62,746 bases of DNA from a virus. Its lineage: Duplodnaviria > Caudoviricetes. Made by a program: the position numbers and the translations under genes. Positions 3,163 through 61,672 of this stretch are shown one piece after another; within the stretch, counting starts at the first letter, position 1, and each line of letters starts with the position of its first letter. Under the pieces are notes generated by a model. That model did not search any database. It had not been told where the DNA came from and saw only the letters and a program-made list of their open reading frames with translations. Location of the stretch: positions 1-62,746 of the IMG/VR virus record IMGVR_UViG_3300044971_000798; one strand, written 5' to 3'.

Positions 3163-5010
3163 ATGTCTTCTCCGCAGAAAATATCACAATTAACAACGGC
3201 AGGCCCGCTTACTGGCGCTGAGCTAGTTCCTGTCGTACAAAACGGCGGCACCCTACAGACCACTATATCGGTGCTTGCCGCGTTTGTAAACGTGTCTATT
3301 CTGCCCGTCGTATCAGCCCTTCAGACCCAGATTGAGCAGGTATCAGTCCTTACTTCTATCAATGCTGAATCTATTACCTCCTTAAATGCGGTAGTATCTA
3401 CTTTTGATTCTCGTATTGAAGCCGTGTCAGCGGGCATTGTTTCGGTAAATAATGCCGTTTCTGCTTTGGAAGTCCGCGTAAGTTCTGTTTCGGCTGCGGC
3501 CTCCAATGCTTCGGCAGCCATCACATCCATTAATAATGTCGTAAGCGCGCTTGAAGTTCGCGTAAGTGCCGTATCTGCCCTGACTTCAGTTAATTCGGCA
3601 GCTATCACATCCATCAATAACGCCGTATCCGCTTTAGAAATCAGAGTCAGCGCGGCTTCTGCAACAGGTGTGGCTAACTCGGCGGCTATTACTTCTGTCA
3701 ATAACGTAGTAAGCGCCCTAGACATTCGCCTTACCAATGTATCGGCATCCGTATCGGTACTTAATGTGCAAATGGGGCAGGCGCTTGCCTCGATTTCAGC
3801 TATCAATTCAGTCCTCGCTACCATCGACACTTCCGCTATCGCGGGCCTAGAAGTTCGCGTTAGCAACCTGTCAATTGCGGTGTCCACTAACTCCGCTGCT
3901 ATCACTTCTGTCAATGCGGTCGTCTCTTTAAAAGTATTCCGCAATAATGATTTCCTTACCAACGTCCAGTTCATCGACTTCGACACTACCACAAGCTACG
4001 CGGTGTGCGCCGGGCGCCTGACATGGGACATTACGCATGGTACCCTCGATTTAGGTCTAACGGGCACCGTCAACTTGCTTATTGGTCAGCGTACCGTCGC
4101 CCAAATCTATAACAATAGCGGCGGCACACTTCCTAAAGGAAAAGCCGTAAAGGTTACGGGCGCCCAAGGCCAACGCTTGACGGGCGCACTTGCCCAAGCT
4201 GACAGCGATTCGGATAGTGCTACTATCTTTGGTATTATGCTTGAGACGGTTTCTAACCTAGGCTCAGGCTACGTTGCAACAGATGGCGTCGTCAACAATG
4301 TCGATACGGCGGCCTATACTGACGGCGACATCGTATACTTATCTCCAGTATCTGCTGGTGAACTAACTCCCGTCAAGCCAGTAGCACCCCAGCATCTCGT
4401 GCAAATTGGCTACATCGTCAAGGGCGGTTCAGTTGGCGGCGGCTCCCTTTATGTCAAAGTCCAAAACGGCTATGAATTAGGTGAACTTCATAACGTCAAG
4501 ACCTCTGCCGAAGTATCCATAGCAAATGGTGAAGTTTTGGTATGGAATGCAAGCGCCAGTGTCTGGACCAACTCGACTGCCCTGCTTGACACGCAAGCTT
4601 CTGTTTCTGCCCTGCAAATCCAACTCAACTCTGTGTCGGCTGCCGTCTCCACTAACGCTGCCGCCATCACCTCCATCAATAACGTAGTCAGTGCCCTTGA
4701 AATCCGTGTCAGTACCGTGTCGGCACGGGCGTCTGCAATTCAAGCGCAAGTCAACAGTGTATCCGCTTTGGTGTCTGCTCTTGATGTGCGCGTGGCCGCC
4801 GTATCAGCTTCTATATCGGCCCTGCAAGTTCAAGTCAACAATGTTTCAGCCGCGCTTACTTCCGCTAACAACGTAGTAAGCGCACTTGAGATTCGCGTCA
4901 GTGCAGCTTCTGCTACAGGCGCTACCAATTCAGCATCTATTACCTCCATCAATGCGGTACTAACGTCCATTCTTGCAATTCTCAATTCCAACTATCGCGT
5001 CTTAGAATAG
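3163..5010 (+). CDS. Second fibre/whisker protein with Ser/Ala/Val coiled-coil repeats flanking a globular domain
   Basis: KISQLTTA anchor; repeated ITSINNVVSALEVRVSA; central YNNSGGTLPKGKAV...YLSPVSAGELT domain. Confidence 0.75.
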   Translation: MSSPQKISQLTTAGPLTGAELVPVVQNGGTLQTTISVLAAFVNVSILPVVSALQTQIEQVSVLTSINAESITSLNAVVSTFDSRIEAVSAGIVSVNNAVSALEVRVSSVSAAASNASAAITSINNVVSALEVRVSAVSALTSVNSAAITSINNAVSALEIRVSAASATGVANSAAITSVNNVVSALDIRLTNVSASVSVLNVQMGQALASISAINSVLATIDTSAIAGLEVRVSNLSIAVSTNSAAITSVNAVVSLKVFRNNDFLTNVQFIDFDTTTSYAVCAGRLTWDITHGTLDLGLTGTVNLLIGQRTVAQIYNNSGGTLPKGKAVKVTGAQGQRLTGALAQADSDSDSATIFGIMLETVSNLGSGYVATDGVVNNVDTAAYTDGDIVYLSPVSAGELTPVKPVAPQHLVQIGYIVKGGSVGGGSLYVKVQNGYELGELHNVKTSAEVSIANGEVLVWNASASVWTNSTALLDTQASVSALQIQLNSVSAAVSTNAAAITSINNVVSALEIRVSTVSARASAIQAQVNSVSALVSALDVRVAAVSASISALQVQVNNVSAALTSANNVVSALEIRVSAASATGATNSASITSINAVLTSILAILNSNYRVLE

Positions 5011-5016
5011 CAAGTG

Positions 5017-5065
5017 GTGAGCAAGTGAGAATCCCCTTGCAACCAATCCTCACTTAATGTAGGAT
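5017..5065 (+). promoter_or_regulatory. Sigma70-type promoter of the helicase/packaging operon, overlapped by GTGAG/CTCAC pentamers
   Basis: TTGCAA(5037-42)-17-TAGGAT(5060-65); GTGAG at 5017 and 5025, CTCAC at 5049. Confidence 0.6.
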
Positions 5066-5089
5066 GTGCTTCTGATCAAGGAGCCACAC

Positions 5090-6565
5090 ATGACAGACAA
5101 AGTAAATCGCGTCCAACTCCTAAACGACGCCAAAGCTCAACTAACACCCTGGACTACCGAAGACGGGCGCCTATTTTTGGATTACACCGACATGGGCACC
5201 CGTCGTACCATGGCCATCACGCCCACGGGCAACTGCGACTTCCGTGGTTGGTTCTCCTCGTTCTGCGTCGACCAAATCAATATCGTGCCCAATGGCGACC
5301 TCGTCAACTCCGCCCAAACCTACTTCGCACACTGGGCACGTACTCGTGGCCCCAAACTGAAAGACTATATCCGCGTAGGCGGGCGCATAGGTGAACTCTA
5401 CATCGATACAGGCAACGACGCCAACGACGCATGGCGCATCACCCCCAACGGTATCGAGCTTGTTAAGGGCGGCCCGACCCACATCCGCATGCTGCGTGGT
5501 GCTGGCGTCTTGCCCCTTGCCGACCCCGACTTCGACGCTGATCCGTCCGAATTCCCTACCCTACTCCGCAAGTACATCGCCTCCGACGACGACACCCTCA
5601 TGCTGCTAACGGCGTGGCTTCTCGGCTGCCTGCGCCCCGAAGGCCCCTATCCCGTCCTCACCATATCCGGCGAACAAGGTTCTGGCAAATCCACAGTTTT
5701 GCGCCTGATGCGCCGTATCATCGACCCCCATGCCCTCGATATGCGTACCCCGCCCGAAGACCAGCGCGACCTACAAGCCATGGTTCGCAACTCTTTTATC
5801 CTGGCCTTCGACAACGTGTCCTTCATTTCCAACAAAATGTCTGACGCTTTGTGCGTTATCAGCACGGGCACGGGCGCCCAGGGTGGTCGCGCGCTCTACA
5901 CCAACGCCGAAGAATCTGCCGTCCGCGTATGCCGCCCCGTCGCCATGAACGGCATCCCCGACGTCGTCGAACGCGGTGACCTAGTAGACCGCTCCATCCA
6001 CGTTCACCTGCCCCGCATCGACCCCCGCCTGCGCCGCGACGATATGGAATTTTGGGACAGCTTCCACACAGATCACCCACGCTTGCTGGGTTCGCTTATG
6101 AATGCAGCATTGAAAGCTATGCAAAACTATGGTAATGTAGTCTTGGCTGAAAAGCCGCGCATGTCTGCGTTTGCAGTGTGGGCCGTTGCTGCTGAACAAG
6201 CTTTCGGGTGGAAGCCGGGTCGTCTTATGGAAGTCTATAAGAACAACCGCTCCGCCGCCGAATCCCAAATGCTTGAGTTCAACGGCATGGCATCCGCCCT
6301 GTTGCGTATGATGGCGAAGCAAAAGGAATTCTCAGGTACGTATTCGGATTTGATTGGACAACTGGAAATGAACATCGGCCCGCGCGAGCGTCTGCCCCAA
6401 ACGTCCCATAGCTTTGCTGCTGAACTCAAGCGCATTCGTCCCGCCCTTGAACGGCAGGGCTTGCGCTTCTTCAATGCCGGGCGCTCGGGTTCCGTGGAGC
6501 AGAAGGGGCGTTCCCGTATTTCCATTGTGCGCCAAGACGACGACGAGGATGCTACGGTTTCATGA
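5090..6565 (+). CDS. P-loop ATPase, SF3/D5-like helicase or replication initiator (no primase domain seen)
   Basis: Walker A GEQGSGKST, Walker B AFDNVS, AMNGI, DLVDRS, winged-helix-like C-terminus; SD AAGGAG at 5078 before ATG 5090. Confidence 0.7.
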   Translation: MTDKVNRVQLLNDAKAQLTPWTTEDGRLFLDYTDMGTRRTMAITPTGNCDFRGWFSSFCVDQINIVPNGDLVNSAQTYFAHWARTRGPKLKDYIRVGGRIGELYIDTGNDANDAWRITPNGIELVKGGPTHIRMLRGAGVLPLADPDFDADPSEFPTLLRKYIASDDDTLMLLTAWLLGCLRPEGPYPVLTISGEQGSGKSTVLRLMRRIIDPHALDMRTPPEDQRDLQAMVRNSFILAFDNVSFISNKMSDALCVISTGTGAQGGRALYTNAEESAVRVCRPVAMNGIPDVVERGDLVDRSIHVHLPRIDPRLRRDDMEFWDSFHTDHPRLLGSLMNAALKAMQNYGNVVLAEKPRMSAFAVWAVAAEQAFGWKPGRLMEVYKNNRSAAESQMLEFNGMASALLRMMAKQKEFSGTYSDLIGQLEMNIGPRERLPQTSHSFAAELKRIRPALERQGLRFFNAGRSGSVEQKGRSRISIVRQDDDEDATVS

Positions 6566-56366: not shown

Positions 56367-56607
56367 GGTGAGTTTCTGTTTGTAAAGCTCACCGCAACCC
56401 TCACCAAAAAGATGTAGTCATATCAAGCGATTAGCTCAAAAGTGAGAAAGGTGAGGAAGGTGAGCGCCCCCTTCTTATCAGAGAAGAAAGTATATAATAT
56501 ATAAAAGGTAGGCGATTTTACGCTCACCTCACTCACCGCTCACTTATCCAATGATATCAATGACTTAGCCCGCGCCCCCGAGGTGAAGAAGAGTGACCTT
56601 CTCTCAC
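56367..56607. other. Origin-like element B
   Basis: GTGAG x3, TATATAATATATAAAA core, CTCAC x4; IHF-consensus sites 56421-33 and 56555-67. Confidence 0.7.
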
Positions 56608-56730
56608 ATCGTTTCGTTTAGCTACCATCTCTAGACGCCGGGCGCATTTCGGCAAGGTAGACTTATATATACCAGAAATCTACTCCAAATACAAGCCCTC
56701 GGCCCCGACGGGTCCCGCGCAGACGCGCCC

Positions 56731-56759
56731 TTGACATCCGGCGCAGGCTTTGTTATATT
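56731..56759 (+). promoter_or_regulatory. Strong sigma70 promoter
   Basis: TTGACA-17-TATATT with an extended -10 TG. Confidence 0.7.
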
Positions 56760-56763
56760 GCGC

Positions 56764-56936
56764 CCTGTGATCTGATCCTGCACCAAGCAGGGGTAGGACC
56801 GCACCATGCGGGAGACAGGCCATATGCGTCCAGTCAACTTCCTGCGTCACTAAACTACACTAATAGCTCCTTTCGTAACTAGCCGGGCGACTGTCTTTCT
56901 ATAGGGTCTTGGGGCGTCTCGCCCACCGGCATTTTC
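56764..56936 (+). ncRNA. Candidate small structured RNA
   Basis: Downstream of a promoter, no convincing + strand ORF; predicted three-way junction plus a 3' hairpin. Confidence 0.3.
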
Positions 56937-56968
56937 ATATCATTACAAAAATGTAATTCGTCGACACG

Positions 56969-56997
56969 TTGACACCCTCGCGTCCCTGCCTTATACA
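56969..56997 (+). promoter_or_regulatory. Sigma70 promoter of the thyX operon
   Basis: TTGACA-17-TATACA; upstream palindrome ATTACA-N4-TGTAAT (56942-57). Confidence 0.55.
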
Positions 56998-57025
56998 CAT
57001 CTTCCCACCAACAAAGGAGAGGGCA

Positions 57026-57226
57026 GTGGAACTACCTAGTGCAGATCGATTTGATCTGGAACAAGCCATCATGCAATGCTGGGGCGTTGTCGATGACCTG
57101 AAGTCTTTCGTAGCCCAGGACGCTGCGCCAGAAGACTACACGGCCATGGCCCGCGTCTATCAGAAGCACTTTGAATATCTGATGGCTATCTTCGAAAAGA
57201 TGCTGGAAGATCGGAAGCTAGGATGA
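57026..57226 (+). CDS. Conserved small phage protein
   Basis: DRFDLEQAIMQCWGVVDDL; GTG start with SD AAGGAG. Confidence 0.7.
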   Translation: MELPSADRFDLEQAIMQCWGVVDDLKSFVAQDAAPEDYTAMARVYQKHFEYLMAIFEKMLEDRKLG

Positions 57227-57435
57227 CTGACGACACCATGGAACTCACCCACCAAGATTTGGTCGAGGCGCTGGATCGGATCATCCGTCAGCTTGAAGTC
57301 CTTGACAACGCAGCCATCATGAAGTCCCTGAACCTGGGCATGTTCGATATTGACGAGATGATCAAGATCGTCGTACTGTACAAAAGTAAGGTGGTCGTTG
57401 ACGCCCACAAGCAAGGAGTTCTGGAATGGAAGTAA
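57223..57435 (+). CDS. Hypothetical protein
   Basis: 70 aa; coupled to both neighbours. Confidence 0.6.
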   Translation: MTDDTMELTHQDLVEALDRIIRQLEVLDNAAIMKSLNLGMFDIDEMIKIVVLYKSKVVVDAHKQGVLEWK

Positions 57436-58469
57436 CATATCTTAGTCACATGGGTGATGATCGCATGGTTGTGAACGCTGCCCGCGTGTCCTTCGGCAAG
57501 CGCACCCAAGAGTTCCGGCCCGGCAAGGACGACCGCCTGCTGGCCTTCCTAGCGCGCCACAAGCATGAACTGCCGTTTGCCCACCCCCACGTCAGCTTCC
57601 ACTTCAAGGCGCCCATCTTTGTGGCCCGGCAACTGGCCAAGCACCAAGTAGGCTTCGTGTGGTCGGAGATCAGCCGTCGCTACGTCAAGGATCGGCCCGA
57701 ATTTTATATTCCGTCCTACTGGCGCAAGGCGGCAGAAAATGTAAAGCAGGGCAGTTCTTTGGAACCTGTGGATATTTCTCCGCGTGGTAAGTGTAATCGT
57801 TGTGGTATACCTGTCAGCTATCCTAAACGGCTTTGGTGTAGCTCTGAGTGTCAAACGCTTTCTTGGCGAGAAAACAACCGCTATGCGTATATATTCTCGA
57901 AATGGGGCGCCGCTGCCAAGTTTGAGAATATTCCTTTTACTATCACGCCGGACGATCTTGCGTGGCCCGATAAGTGTCCGTATCTAGATATCCAGCTTGA
58001 TTACACTCCCGGCGACAAAAACGACAATAAGGCATCTCTGGATAAAATTGTGCCTGCTCTTGGTTACGTTCCAGGGAATGTGCAAATTGTTTCTTTGCTT
58101 GCCAATAAGATGAAAAGTTCTGCGTCCTTGGAGCAGATTAAGACTTTTGCAAAAAACGCCTTGTTTATTCACGGTGGGGTTTTTGCAGAAACTTCTCACT
58201 CCTACGCAGATTATTGTGAAAAGGCTGCTGACCTTTATGTGGAACTTATCTCACAGGGTGTTTGCGCTGAACAGGCTCGCATGGTATTGCCCCAAGCGCA
58301 ACTAACGGAATGGCACTGGACCGGAAGTCTGCTGGGCTGGAGCCGGGTCTGGAACCTGCGCGTAAAGCCTGATGCCCAGGCCGAAACCCGTGAAATTGTG
58401 CAACTAATTGGGCCAACCATGAAAGCTTTATTTCCGTTTTCTTGGTCTGCTTTGACTGGCGACCGCTAG
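57426..58469 (+). CDS. thyX: Flavin-dependent thymidylate synthase with an in-frame endonuclease-domain insertion
   Basis: VVNAARVSF, H..PF, PIFVARQLAKHQ...SEISRRY, EQARMVLP, AQAETRE; about 135 extra residues in the middle. Confidence 0.92.
   Translation: MEVTYLSHMGDDRMVVNAARVSFGKRTQEFRPGKDDRLLAFLARHKHELPFAHPHVSFHFKAPIFVARQLAKHQVGFVWSEISRRYVKDRPEFYIPSYWRKAAENVKQGSSLEPVDISPRGKCNRCGIPVSYPKRLWCSSECQTLSWRENNRYAYIFSKWGAAAKFENIPFTITPDDLAWPDKCPYLDIQLDYTPGDKNDNKASLDKIVPALGYVPGNVQIVSLLANKMKSSASLEQIKTFAKNALFIHGGVFAETSHSYADYCEKAADLYVELISQGVCAEQARMVLPQAQLTEWHWTGSLLGWSRVWNLRVKPDAQAETREIVQLIGPTMKALFPFSWSALTGDR
57777..58181 (+). mobile_element. HNH-like endonuclease domain inserted in thyX (approximate bounds)
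   Basis: CNRC...WCSSEC, CPYL, SLDKIVPALGYVPGNVQIVS..ANKMK; lower GC than the thyX 5' part. Confidence 0.8.
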
Positions 58470-58495
58470 AAATTTCTGGCGTTCTTTGGTATACT
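58467..58495 (+). promoter_or_regulatory. Promoter of nrdJ
   Basis: TAGAAA-17-TATACT with an extended -10 TG. Confidence 0.55.
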
Positions 58496-58522
58496 GACCC
58501 TTCATCCAAACAGGAGCTTTGA

Positions 58523-60565
58523 ATGCGTAATTCACCCGAAGTGCGTACACCGTCCGTGCGCGCTGCTACCATTACTCGTCGCACTTACTCCCGCCCACTG
58601 GAAGGCGGCGGCTTTGAAAGCTGGGACGACATTGTCGGTCGCGTCGTCAGCCACCAGCGTTGGCTGTGGCAGCGGGCGCTGGGCGACGTCCCCTTGGACA
58701 AGAAGCAAGAAGATGAACTTGAAGAACTGCGTGACGTGCTGCTGCGCCGTAGCGGTTCTGTGTCTGGCCGTACCCTGTGGCTGGGCGGCACCGAAGTAGC
58801 CAAGCGCCGCGAGGCGTCCATGTTTAACTGCGCGTTCACGAAGGTGGAGACGGTCCATGACGTTGTCGACTCCTTCTGGCTGCTGTTGCAGGGCTGCGGC
58901 GTCGGCTTCGAACCCGTTGTCGGTACGCTCAATGGCTTTACTGCGCCGATGGAAATCGAAGTGGTACGGTCCCAGCGTCATCTACTGGAGCAAAAGAAAG
59001 GCCGCGAAACCAATGTCGAAACGTATACTACCGAAGGCGACCGACTCTGGGGCCGCAAAACGGTATGGACAATTAGTGTGGGTGATTCAGCAGAAGCGTG
59101 GGCAAAGTCGGTCGGTAAAATGCTGGCTGGCAAGCGGAAGGCTGATGTGCTACGACTTGACTTCTCGCAGATTCGTCCAGCCGGGCAACGTCTTAAGGGC
59201 TATGGGTGGATTTCGTCGGGTGATGAAACTTTTGCGCCTGCAATGCAGCATATCGCGGAAATCCTCAACAATCGCGCTGGTCATCTCCTTTCCCGAATCG
59301 ACATCCTCGACGTCCTCAACCACCTTGGCACAACCCTCTCCTCACGTCGTTCGGCTGAGATTGCGCTCGTTCCTTACGGCGATGCCGAATGGGTAGACTT
59401 TGCCAAGGCCAAAAAGGACTTCTGGCTACATAACAACTACCACCGCCAGCAATCTAACAACTCCGTCACTTTCCACGCCAAACCTGCGCGCGAAGACATT
59501 GCCGGGTTGTTCGACATGATGCAAGATGCGGGCGGCTCCGAGCCGGGTTTCATCAACTTTGTGGAGGGCAAGCGCCGGGGTCCGTGGATGTCGGGCGTCA
59601 ATCCCTGCGCCGAAATCCTGCTGCCCAACAAGGGCTTCTGTAACTTGGTGGAAATCAATCTGTCACACTTCAACGGCATCCACGCCAAGAAGCTGTGGCG
59701 GGTGGCGGAACTGCTGGCCCGTGCCAACTACCGCCAGACCTGCGTCAATCTGGTGGACGGCGTCCTTCAGCGGGCGTGGCACGAGAACAACGAGTTCCTG
59801 CGGCTGTGTGGCGTGGGCGTCACAGGCGTTGCCGAATGGGAACCAGCGGGTGATCCGTCCGTCTGGCGCATGCTTCGCGACAAAGTCAAGCGGGCGGCGA
59901 ATGGTATGGCCGACGAACTGGGGCTGCCGCGTCCCAAGGCCGTCACTACGGTCAAGCCGTCGGGCACCCTGTCGAAGATTATGGACACGACCGAAGGCGT
60001 TCACAAGCCGCTGGGCCGCTATATCTTCAATAATGTACGCTTCAGCAAGCACGATCCGTTCGTTCAGGAACTGGTGGACGCCAACTATAAGGTGATTCAG
60101 GACCCGTCCAGCCAGGATGCGGTGCTGGTTACGTTCCCGGTGGCCTACCCACGGGTCCAGATGGACGAAGTAGACGGTAAGTTCGTCAACTTGGAACCCG
60201 CGACGGTCCAGTTGGCTCGCTACAAGACCATGATGGACAATTATGTGGACCATAACTGTTCGGTTACGATCAGCTACAGCCCGGAAGAAGCACCGGAAAT
60301 CGTGGATTGGCTCCATGAAAACTGGGAATCCTACGTGGGCGTGAGCTTTTTGTACCGGACAGACCCCACTAAGACGGCCAAGGACCTTGGCTATTTATAT
60401 TTGCCCCAACAGGTTGTTACAGAAGAAGAATATAATGAGTATGTAAGTACCTTGAAGCCTATAAAAGGGGAAGAAATGGGTACGAATGAACTTGTAAAAG
60501 AAGCTGACGACTTTGAAATCGACACCGGAAGCGAATGTGCAACTGGTGCGTGTCCTGTACGGTAA
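58523..60565 (+). CDS. nrdJ: Class II (adenosylcobalamin-dependent) ribonucleotide reductase
   Basis: GRTLW, FNCAF, NPCAEI, CNL, TVKPSGT, C-terminal ECATGACPVR; no small subunit gene present. Confidence 0.93.
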   Translation: MRNSPEVRTPSVRAATITRRTYSRPLEGGGFESWDDIVGRVVSHQRWLWQRALGDVPLDKKQEDELEELRDVLLRRSGSVSGRTLWLGGTEVAKRREASMFNCAFTKVETVHDVVDSFWLLLQGCGVGFEPVVGTLNGFTAPMEIEVVRSQRHLLEQKKGRETNVETYTTEGDRLWGRKTVWTISVGDSAEAWAKSVGKMLAGKRKADVLRLDFSQIRPAGQRLKGYGWISSGDETFAPAMQHIAEILNNRAGHLLSRIDILDVLNHLGTTLSSRRSAEIALVPYGDAEWVDFAKAKKDFWLHNNYHRQQSNNSVTFHAKPAREDIAGLFDMMQDAGGSEPGFINFVEGKRRGPWMSGVNPCAEILLPNKGFCNLVEINLSHFNGIHAKKLWRVAELLARANYRQTCVNLVDGVLQRAWHENNEFLRLCGVGVTGVAEWEPAGDPSVWRMLRDKVKRAANGMADELGLPRPKAVTTVKPSGTLSKIMDTTEGVHKPLGRYIFNNVRFSKHDPFVQELVDANYKVIQDPSSQDAVLVTFPVAYPRVQMDEVDGKFVNLEPATVQLARYKTMMDNYVDHNCSVTISYSPEEAPEIVDWLHENWESYVGVSFLYRTDPTKTAKDLGYLYLPQQVVTEEEYNEYVSTLKPIKGEEMGTNELVKEADDFEIDTGSECATGACPVR

Positions 60566-60993
60566 TGCCCCATAAGGACAGAGATCAGGACCGGGAGTAT
60601 AAGCGCCAATATTACTCCCGGCGCCGCCGCGAAGACCCTGAATACAGCCGAAAAGGCCAGTACGACTGGCGTGTTAGGAACCCGAAGAAGTATTTACTGT
60701 CTAGGGCCAGGGGCAGAGCTAAGGTAGAGGGTATTCCCTTTGCTATTACAGATGAAGATTTTGAAATACCTGAATATTGCCCAATATTTAGGCATCTCAA
60801 ATTGCAATTTAGTAATGGCAGAGGTAGTAGACCTGATAATATACCCACTCTAGATAAGATAATACCCGCTTTGGGGTATGTTCCGGGTAATGTAGCTGTA
60901 ATATCAATGCGGGCTAATCGCCTAAAGAGCGATTCTACGGCACAAGAATTGCAAGCTATATTGGATTGGATCAATGATCAAACAGCAAGCTAA
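60565..60993 (+). CDS. Free-standing HNH-like homing endonuclease
   Basis: CPIF...TLDKIIPALGYVPGNVAVISMRANRLK; TAATG overlap with nrdJ; AT-rich. Confidence 0.85.
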   Translation: MPHKDRDQDREYKRQYYSRRRREDPEYSRKGQYDWRVRNPKKYLLSRARGRAKVEGIPFAITDEDFEIPEYCPIFRHLKLQFSNGRGSRPDNIPTLDKIIPALGYVPGNVAVISMRANRLKSDSTAQELQAILDWINDQTAS

Positions 60994-61162
60994 GAAAAGG
61001 AGTCCGTGTCGTGGAATATGCCATATTGTTAGGGGTCCCTATAGCCGCATGTGCGGTGGCTGCCTCCGTTTTCTTACGGAAATTGAAAACTGGAGCCGAT
61101 ATACTGATGAAGAACGGGCGAATATCCTCCGGCTACTACCACTAAGGGTAGAACAGACTTGA
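60974..61162 (+). CDS. DUF1289-like small Cys protein
   Basis: SPCRGIC...CGGCLR...EIENW...EER..IL. Confidence 0.75.
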   Translation: MIKQQAKKRSPCRGICHIVRGPYSRMCGGCLRFLTEIENWSRYTDEERANILRLLPLRVEQT

Positions 61163-61217
61163 TTTTATGGAGCCAGTGGGGTATTATCCTGCTGGCTTCA
61201 TCTATTTGGGGGTACTC

Positions 61218-61424
61218 ATGAAGTTTTCCGTTACATACGAGGATGGACTGTGGACCTTCAGCCTGGAATCCACTGATCCGCAGTCCGATTACTACGAAGA
61301 ATTCGAAATTATGGACGAAGACGAAGCCAAGACCGTGGCCGCCGAGCTTATTGGCGAGATTTCCATAGCCGACGACGACCTAGACCTAGAAGAAATGGTT
61401 GCCAACAGGATCGACCCCGAATGA
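61218..61424 (+). CDS. Small acidic protein
   Basis: MKFSVTYEDG...; promoter TTGATT(61159)-17-TATTAT upstream. Confidence 0.6.
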   Translation: MKFSVTYEDGLWTFSLESTDPQSDYYEEFEIMDEDEAKTVAAELIGEISIADDDLDLEEMVANRIDPE

Positions 61425-61672
61425 CCCAGTCCAAAGCTTCAGCTATCGAACAATTCCAAGAGATGGTGGACCTGGACCGTAAAATAGCCAGCACCGTCGC
61501 CAAGGTTATGGCCCAGTCCCCGGTAGCTATCATGATTGCCTGGGAAGATGCTGAAGGTGGCGTTAAGGCTACCAGCATTCCCTTCTCGGCCTGCCTTGTC
61601 AAGGGCATGGTCGACACCCTTTTCGATATGGTATTTGACAATGATCCAGAAGCTGATGACGATGTATCGTAA
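61421..61672 (+). CDS. Hypothetical protein
   Basis: 83 aa; ATGA overlap. Confidence 0.6.
   Translation: MTQSKASAIEQFQEMVDLDRKIASTVAKVMAQSPVAIMIAWEDAEGGVKATSIPFSACLVKGMVDTLFDMVFDNDPEADDDVS

Follow-up and report, generated by a model that had tools for sequence, protein, structure and literature searches.

How can an endonuclease of the kind that homes sit in the middle of a gene that its host needs, when nothing at the locus seems able to splice it out? This question is raised by the thyX gene of a virus of the Caudoviricetes, IMG/VR record IMGVR_UViG_3300044971_000798, whose whole stretch of 62,746 bp (about 99% complete) was analysed and is called the window below. Introns, inteins and intergenic space are the textbook homes of homing endonucleases, and the first two rely on splicing to spare the host gene. 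In the window, thyX is one continuous open reading frame (ORF) of 347 codons, as the first-pass annotation of this DNA had read it, and it holds an endonuclease domain in frame within the thymidylate synthase ThyX (Table 1). It is also the sole thymidylate synthase gene of the virus record, in which a genome search found no second ThyX and no ThyA. Our analysis indicates that the insert is probably a splice-free homing endonuclease, kept in frame as a domain of the phage ThyX. The lake-water provenance of the virus is indicated by 18 lake or freshwater DNA runs that contain a fraction of 0.88 or more of the words sampled from the stretch, and an independent contig, L116, is 99.67% identical to the window. 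An assembly chimera or artefact was rejected because the stretch occurs in so many runs.

A Pfam search of the predicted protein (P0001) gave a match to Thy1 (PF02511) with an E-value of 8.8e-40 (137 bits against a cut-off of 24.8), which was also recovered in the genome search and is broken into two stretches by a gap of about 135–145 residues. Between both stretches, the PHROG family phrog_3322, annotated as endonuclease, matches residues 145–244 (E 2.9e-27), and phrog_1035, annotated as endonuclease VII, matches residues 119–248, while ThyX chains of the PDB align to residues 5–111 and 266–343. A close relative without the insert, L005, has 103 nt where the window has 508 nt (57755–58262). 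The net difference of 405 nt, or 135 codons, agrees with the estimate of about 135 inserted residues made in the first-pass annotation, which had also proposed that a normal-sized ThyX of about 210 residues would remain without them; the insert-free ThyX-type ORF of L005 encodes about 212–216 residues.

The arrangement is not confined to this phage. Among the best 120 ThyX homologues listed, 55 carry an insert (329–408 residues) and 65 lack it (203–223 residues), and the insertion site is identical in all 55 of the listed insert-bearing homologues, directly after the motif [N/D]-x-K-Q-G-S. The same site is occupied in L117, which encodes a distant ThyX with the canonical RHR motif. Insert-free close relatives are known in both of the ThyX clades, A and B, that are compared below.

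We looked for splicing elements at the levels of RNA, protein sequence and fold. An Rfam covariance scan of positions 56500–61500 at E<=10 returned no group I or group II intron, its four sub-threshold matches being unrelated chance hits, and this accords with the earlier impression that there is no space for a ribozyme core. The insert has no unusually stable RNA fold (z -1.0; 15 of 100 shuffled sequences fold at least as well), and no flanking direct repeats of note were found beside it. For the protein, Pfam at E<=1 gave no intein, Hint or LAGLIDADG family, and neither HN[C/S/T] nor any N[C/S/T] occurs anywhere in the 347 residues, so the reported lack of intein splice blocks is confirmed. 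Across 53 aligned inserts, the C-terminal junction is preceded by a Gly without exception. A fold search with the AlphaFold2 (AF2) model detected no Hint fold and returned ThyX, followed by PacI and HNH nucleases. More than 50 diverged homologues keep the reading frame open and under selection, and since the insert is homologous over its whole length to complete free-standing endonucleases, there is no room for a Hint or other splicing domain. Transcript data are too thin to weigh on splicing either way: one 225-nt metatranscriptome contig (run X19) lies on 57752–57961, bridges neither junction by 31 nt and could stem from carried-over DNA, the contigs of RNA run X20 derive from insert-free relatives, and no joints were seen in the contigs of four runs aligned to the locus. 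Taken from its sequence and its predicted fold, the insert is neither an intron nor an intein, and the fusion would be made without splicing.

To what kind of nuclease does the insert belong? Identity among the 53 inserts is 29–100%. Their zinc ligands are C123 (51/53), C126 (50/53), C138 (50/53) and a C or H at position 142 (50/53; C in 38 and H in 12), and the zinc finger named in the first-pass annotation is thus a real zinc ribbon whose ligands are kept in 50–51 of the 53. Six residues are invariant in all 53, namely Y214, N218, S223, A226, N227 and M229, and the position of the HNH histidine is occupied by K in 18 and R in 35, the catalytic His being absent throughout. The AF2 model of the ORF has a predicted local distance difference test score (pLDDT) of 85.8 and a predicted template-modelling score (pTM) of 0.65, with blocks of the insert at 68–89, and the core of the insert consists of strands at residues 202–207 and 219–223 followed by a helix at 224–231. 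PacI is the top fold hit after five ThyX chains and therefore the best match outside ThyX (3m7k_A; Z 6.8, root-mean-square deviation (rmsd) 2.9, 79 residues aligned over model residues 150–232), and other HNH nucleases are weaker (Z 2.8–4.2). We also built a profile, A2, from 29 sequences, the window's insert and 28 free-standing relatives. It matched a single PDB entry at E<=10, again PacI, with D-R, G-Y, N and N-x-x-K of the enzyme (D-R..G-Y..N..N-R-I-K) in register with the insert, and the tyrosine of the PacI G-Y, which lies in its omega loop, aligns with Y214. The free-standing copy of the window (P0002, described below), searched alone against PDB sequences, gave only chance matches of leucine-rich-repeat type.

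PacI has no catalytic histidine, and according to the available parts of PMC4081073 and PMC5714182 the omega-loop tyrosine takes over its role; PacI-like His-Me finger nucleases form group 20 in the latter. The insert is most likely a PacI-like beta-beta-alpha-metal domain with a loop tyrosine in place of the HNH histidine, and nuclease activity is predicted on the basis of sequence and model. The first-pass annotation had noted that the canonical HNH His reads D-K in both copies of the window and had doubted activity for that reason. The reading stands for both copies and extends, as K or R, to all 53 inserts, and the doubt is largely settled by the same layout in active PacI: because PacI lacks the histidine as well, its absence would be a family trait of an active enzyme type rather than decay. 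Some of the results speak against so close a relationship. Asp206, which would bind metal, is replaced by Asn in 21 of the 53 inserts, identity to PacI in the fold alignment is only 19%, a Z of 6.8 falls in the range that the fold-search tool calls common, and the A2 profile match is weak (E 0.14).

PacI is a solved homodimer, and the insert was modelled as a homodimer as well. The interaction prediction score from aligned errors (ipSAE) was 0.69 against 0.00 for the best control, the runs agreed in at least 93% of contacts and the partner pLDDT was at least 81; among proteins of solved structure, 20 of 30 pairs and 1 of 23 single chains attained the mark set for this score. The predicted interface comprises P0001 residues 185–188, 200 and 225–250. 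Since PacI itself was solved as a homodimer, this prediction may reflect only the likeness of the insert to it.

The ThyX part around the insert shows the features of a constrained enzyme. Its AF2 core superposes on Thermotoga maritima ThyX (5chp_A) with Z 20.7 and rmsd 2.3 over 195 residues. Residues were compared in an alignment of 83 rows, A1, that holds P0001, 52 of the 55 insert-bearing hits (P0082, P0099 and P0112 are omitted) and 30 of the 65 insert-free hits, the latter chosen to thin near-duplicates. E81, S83, R84, R85, Y86, R285, R312, Q318 and E320 are invariant in 83/83 rows, as are K107, Q108 and G109. The ThyX motif is RHR-(X)7-S-x-R-Y. At 57639–57647 (residues 72–74) the window reads K-H-Q instead of R-H-R, with H73, S83, R85 and Y86 kept and one extra residue before S-x-R-Y; K-H-Q is the consensus of the whole clade, insert-free members included, and K72 is invariant in 83/83 rows. 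With the invariant residues in place, the fusion presumably retains thymidylate synthase activity.

Selection acts on the insert as well. Between L032 and L033, the proportions of nonsynonymous and synonymous differences (pN/pS) are 0.120/0.797 in the insert, 0.170/0.770 in the N-terminal core and 0.141/0.632 in the C-terminal core; pN and pS are given instead of dN/dS because synonymous sites are saturated (pS 0.63–0.80), and L116 is too close to the window for rate estimates. The insert's pN lies below that of both ThyX parts, which argues that the insert is a selected protein domain in the thyX frame. By this comparison of coding sequences, purifying selection maintains it in frame and is no weaker there than on the ThyX core, which itself remains constrained in genes that carry the insert.

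Comparison with close relatives revealed a footprint of recombination that follows the insert closely. L005, L002 and L006 share 89–95% nucleotide identity with the window around thyX, and yet lack both the insert and the gene at 60566–60988. Base by base, the window and L005 are 95% identical at 57490–57691 and 97.5% at 58305–58700, with 100% identity from 58393 to the thyX stop, and identity falls to 62% at 57692–57754 and 60% at 58263–58304. The alignment with an insert-free ThyX that had been proposed as a check, run here against L005, hence confines the differences around the insert to one sharp-edged segment. GC content is 0.45–0.50 in this segment, 0.67 in the equivalent part of L005 and 0.551 in the whole window. 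The lower GC that was reported to extend through the thyX 3' end is thus real, but it stops at 58304: the last 165 nt of the gene, which lie within 58305–58700, are native in composition (0.552). In runs X14 and X20, the match to contigs from insert-free relatives breaks off precisely at 57691 and 58305.

The same pattern was found among proteins when ThyX was divided into parts distal and proximal to the insert. Against 30 insert-free clade-A proteins, identity of P0001 is 84% in the distal N part, 56% in the proximal N part, 38% in the proximal C part and 75% in the distal C part; against the 13 clade-B proteins with the closest insert, the corresponding values are 54%, 73%, 44% and 39%. L033, a member of clade B, is 80%, 55%, 32% and 81% identical to insert-free L061 in the same order, and 74%, 91%, 78% and 88% identical to insert-bearing L032, and by these values it is an independent repeat, in clade B, of the distal/proximal reversal seen in the window's ThyX. 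The ThyX-core tree nests the window's group of six sequences among 30 insert-free proteins of one clade (support 100%), and the insert tree joins the window's insert to the inserts of one clade-B subgroup with 98% support. Approximately unbiased (AU) tests rejected the core split with the insert data (p 1.4e-5) and the insert split with the core data (p 0.00097), with the reservation that these were quick trees and that the groups tested in one partition had been picked from the tree of the other once it had been inspected. Besides this reservation, several points count against homing. The core tree needs only two state changes, and much of the inheritance is vertical, because every sampled sequence of the deep clade B seemed to carry the insert, insert-free relatives of this clade appearing only in a later scan. 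The event that separates the window from L005 is taken as a gain from GC content and the insert tree, which are indirect guides to direction, and adaptation to the insert might explain part of the differences in the flanks.

Recombination in thyX extends beyond the insert. A second small mosaic patch covers 57437–57470 (codons 4–15), where the window differs from L005, L002 and L006 and resembles L009, and contigs of the relatives in run X20 lose their match at 57467/57468. It seems from these patterns that thyX recombines often in these phages.

The nuclease domain also exists as free-standing genes, one of them in the window itself. P0002 is 42% identical to the insert over 98 residues (E 9e-26) and matches the same two PHROGs, which bears out the homology that the first-pass annotation had seen with the gene at 60565. 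The likely true start of P0002 is an ATG that overlaps the stop codon of the preceding ribonucleotide reductase (RNR) gene (T-A-A-T-G). With respect to L002, L003, L004, L005 and L009, positions 60566–60988, which lie between the RNR gene and a DUF1289 gene, are a clean indel of 423 bp with a GC content of 0.452 like that of the thyX insert. The cysteine-rich DUF1289 gene (60974–61162; Pfam E 1.6e-14) overlaps the end of the P0002 ORF.

Twenty-eight complete free-standing proteins of 119–204 residues align with the insert end to end, from the CxxC zinc ribbon to the last helix, and many of them stop where the insert stops. One free-standing homologue, P0126 (143 residues), is 54% identical to the insert. 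Members of the family were found upstream of an insert-free thyX and overlapping its start in L009 (5878–6324) and L059 (about 4977–5444), and just downstream of an insert-free thyX in L031 (7035–7514), the layout expected of endonucleases that target thyX from outside. These thyX-adjacent relatives, together with P0126, suggest a route from a neighbouring gene to an in-frame insert.

The family as a whole is large: at E<=0.001 it numbers 14,180 representative clusters, of which 3,501 remain at E<=1e-10, and phrog_3322 is present in 89 phage records. Many members of about 270–490 residues carry two tandem copies of the nuclease domain (for example P0125, P0129 and P0133), and some carry helix-turn-helix (HTH) modules; tandem domains and HTH modules are common among homing endonucleases. 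We scanned 27 of the 150 listed representatives with Pfam, picked by length or by how many stretches of them matched. Five proved to be ThyX fusions, in which the Pfam profile is interrupted at positions of about 105–111, several have HTH domains and the rest match no family. No other enzyme host for the nuclease domain was found among these 27, and no Pfam family was reported for the domain itself in any member scanned. With its 2180 residues and 22 short matched stretches, P0146 probably represents a false positive of leucine-rich-repeat type, the nuclease motif being similar to the repeat units. P0257 is a free-standing homologue of 175 residues whose last 30 or so resemble the cysteine-bearing C-terminal tail of ribonucleotide reductase, which suggests an endonuclease gene that may have inserted into the 3' end of an RNR gene or may carry a duplicate of it.

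Among deposited phages, none of 1277 matching records covers at least 80% of the protein, and no viral protein in BFVD covers both domains (best query-normalised TM-score 0.53). A metagenome scan with the insert returned 21 loci, L116 and L117 among them, the other 19 matching only 38–58% of the insert. A viral locus scan returned 31 loci, three of them with long matches; in L009 and L031 the extra length is the neighbouring free-standing gene. The thyX genes of L059 and L106 are insert-free, and a related-locus search with P0007 found no loci. ThyX of L031 (5992–6789), L106 (4995–5771) and L117 (803–1954) has a different extra segment of about 45–60 residues near the N-terminus, after the first conserved helix, which is unrelated to the endonuclease insert.

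Table 1. Features of the thyX region of the window
Feature	Position	Strand	Basis or remark
thyX ORF with in-frame endonuclease insert	57426..58469	+	347 aa, one continuous ORF
ThyX N-terminal part, residues 1-111	57426..57758	+	Ends in NVKQGSS motif; Pfam Thy1 profile positions 3-105; PDB ThyX chains, residues 5-111
Inserted domain, most likely a PacI-like His-Me-finger endonuclease, with linkers, residues 112-256	57759..58193	+	phrog_3322, phrog_1035, free-standing homologues, PacI fold match
Zinc ribbon CxxC...C...C (C123, C126, C138, C142)	57792..57851	+	Conservation across 53 inserts
Predicted beta-beta-alpha-metal core, residues 202-231: D206-K207, G213-Y214, N218, A226-N227, K230	58029..58118	+	AF2 model, conservation, PacI alignment
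ThyX C-terminal part, residues 257-347, and stop codon	58194..58469	+	Thy1 profile positions 108-190 placed at 58188-58436 (Pfam, genome search)
Foreign AT-rich segment: insert and presumably co-converted thyX flanks (about 68 nt upstream, 110-140 nt downstream)	57692..58304	+	Identity drop, GC
Class II-like ribonucleotide reductase gene, between both endonuclease copies	58523..60565	+	phrog_367, E 1.3e-171
Free-standing endonuclease paralogue P0002	60565..60993	+	phrog_3322/phrog_1035; ATG overlaps RNR stop

Every computational test that was run (splicing scans, homology, selection and mobility footprint) agrees with the proposal, already made in the first-pass annotation, of a splicing-free homing element kept as a protein domain. 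As we picture it, a phage homing endonuclease gene of the free-standing type would have been fused in frame into thyX directly after the N-V-K-Q-G-S-S codons, and would have lost its own start and stop codons on becoming an internal domain. Most likely the phage makes a 347-residue ThyX whose core folds around the nuclease as an additional domain. The insertion site may be a surface loop in the tetramer, in line with the surface loop proposed in the first-pass annotation. ThyX is an oligomer, and the nuclease domains may dimerise on it. Should the phage encounter a relative whose thyX allele is empty, the nuclease domain, acting as a dimer, would itself cut that allele at or near the insertion site. 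The break would be repaired from the insert-bearing allele, and in this way the insert and the thyX codons next to it would be copied. In the element's own allele the target is split by the insert, and this allele would therefore be immune.

The strongest competitor, which we consider unlikely, is that the domain was captured long ago and kept because it is useful, and that the mosaic reflects ordinary recombination among phage thyX genes rather than homing. A retained domain of this kind might degrade host DNA to feed the synthesis of thymidine monophosphate (dTMP), or might tether or regulate ThyX on DNA. Strong long-term conservation is unusual for a selfish nuclease and fits a useful domain just as well, and it is what we see: purifying selection on the insert matches or exceeds that on the core, and invariant residues persist across 53 inserts that are as little as 29% identical. 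The two changes of state in the core tree and the mosaic patch elsewhere in thyX (codons 4–15) point the same way. Ordinary recombination does not account as readily for end points that lie close to the insert on either side, and do so in two independent lineages, nor for a segment that is compositionally foreign. Moreover, near-identical phages appear to manage without the insert, the full architecture is absent from the 1277 matching records of deposited phages at a coverage of at least 80%, and the free-standing members behave like mobile homing endonuclease genes (HEGs), with clean insertions or deletions beside nucleotide-metabolism genes.

More improbable still is a passenger that does not cut, either spread in trans by a free-standing relative that cuts near thyX or tolerated as a decaying remnant. 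Candidates for cutting in trans are the copy at 60565–60993 and the thyX-adjacent genes of L009 and L059. Free-standing homologues do lie directly beside thyX in L009, L031 and L059, trans-homing of a defunct endonuclease by mobE of phage T4 is published (PMC2790892, in the part available), and the change of D206 to N in 21/53 inserts would fit lost activity. Decay is argued against, though, because all 53 inserts retain the candidate catalytic residues Tyr214, Asn218 and Asn227 and pN/pS is about 0.15, and the window's own free-standing copy lies 2 kb away, at the 3' end of the RNR gene, and is only 42% identical. Removal of the insert after all, by unrecognised RNA splicing or bypass or by non-canonical protein splicing that leaves a mature ThyX of normal size, is very improbable, since the scans gave no intron family, unusually stable RNA fold, Hint fold, intein block or terminal Asn followed by C, S or T, and the insert is selected in frame and wholly homologous to complete free-standing proteins, even if splicing normally rescues HEGs that occupy conserved sites of needed genes, a Ser precedes the insert and phage ThyX genes are known intein hosts (available text of PMC5050341 and bioRxiv 10.1101/2025.01.02.630785).

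The splice-free homing endonuclease domain thus remains the explanation that we prefer. A bolder version of it falls a little short of an even chance in our judgement: that HEGs occupy the conserved core of a needed gene unspliced, as folded and active domains, that they borrow the ThyX tetramer to pair their nuclease domains, and that they form a widespread and still mobile lineage of environmental phages (55 of the nearest 120 ThyX clusters listed).

We found no description of an in-frame endonuclease domain in ThyX in a full-text literature search, which covered main texts, supplementary files being outside its scope. The nearest published case that we found is the ShiLan insertion element of actinobacteriophage methylases. 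As presented in the available part of PMC11855218, it is inserted at a conserved site of a phage DNA methylase gene, is read through in frame without detectable intron or intein features, has a disjunct distribution and encodes an HNH-type endonuclease, for which splice-free homing was proposed. The thyX insert resembles it in being a read-through insertion at a conserved site of a gene of nucleotide or DNA metabolism, in lacking intron and intein features and in its disjunct distribution. It differs in the host gene and in the nuclease family (here PacI-like and without the histidine) and, going by the same text, in that the ShiLan HNH is encoded in another frame, the in-frame translation being a low-confidence loop, whereas here the nuclease is read in the thyX frame as a predicted folded domain.

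Inteins of phage ThyX are a second point of comparison (PMC5050341; bioRxiv 10.1101/2025.01.02.630785, both as far as available). They too are selfish in-frame insertions at a conserved site in the same kind of host gene, with a sporadic distribution and conflict between element and host trees, but the present insert has no Hint domain, splice-junction residues or intein family match, and its 135–170 residues are filled by the nuclease. Free-standing phage HEGs such as T4 mobE (PMC2790892, available portion) share with it the location beside nucleotide-metabolism genes, many such genes belonging to the same protein family (phrog_3322), and the same footprints of clean insertions or deletions and co-conversion; those genes lie between host genes or split their hosts into two ORFs, whereas the insert is an internal domain without start or stop. 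R.PacI (PDB 3ldy, 3m7k) resembles the insert in the beta-beta-alpha-metal fold, the N-terminal CxxC zinc motif, the D-R...G-Y...N...N-x-x-K residues, the absence of a catalytic His and the homodimer, which for the insert is predicted. The enzyme is, on the other hand, a stand-alone bacterial restriction enzyme, and its sequence similarity to the insert is marginal. In fungal mitochondrial rps3, LAGLIDADG HEGs are fused in frame to a host coding gene without an intron of their own, as in thyX. The rps3 fusions are terminal, with a duplicated end of the host gene, belong to another nuclease family and are organellar, and the thyX insert is internal to an enzyme fold.

If the fusion works both as a synthase and as a nuclease, a HEG could live inside a needed gene without splicing, and selfish nucleases would have a third way into such genes besides introns and inteins. 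A compact nuclease would be tolerated at a permissive site beside a highly conserved motif, which would bear on the origins of inteins and intron-borne endonucleases and on how enzymes acquire inserted domains. The family would also be a source of natural, small PacI-like nucleases without the histidine, presumably with long targets. Two-domain ThyX genes of about 350 codons are easily mislabelled, because the nuclease domain has no Pfam match in the members scanned. The lake-water time series that hold this phage could reveal how the insert spreads in nature.

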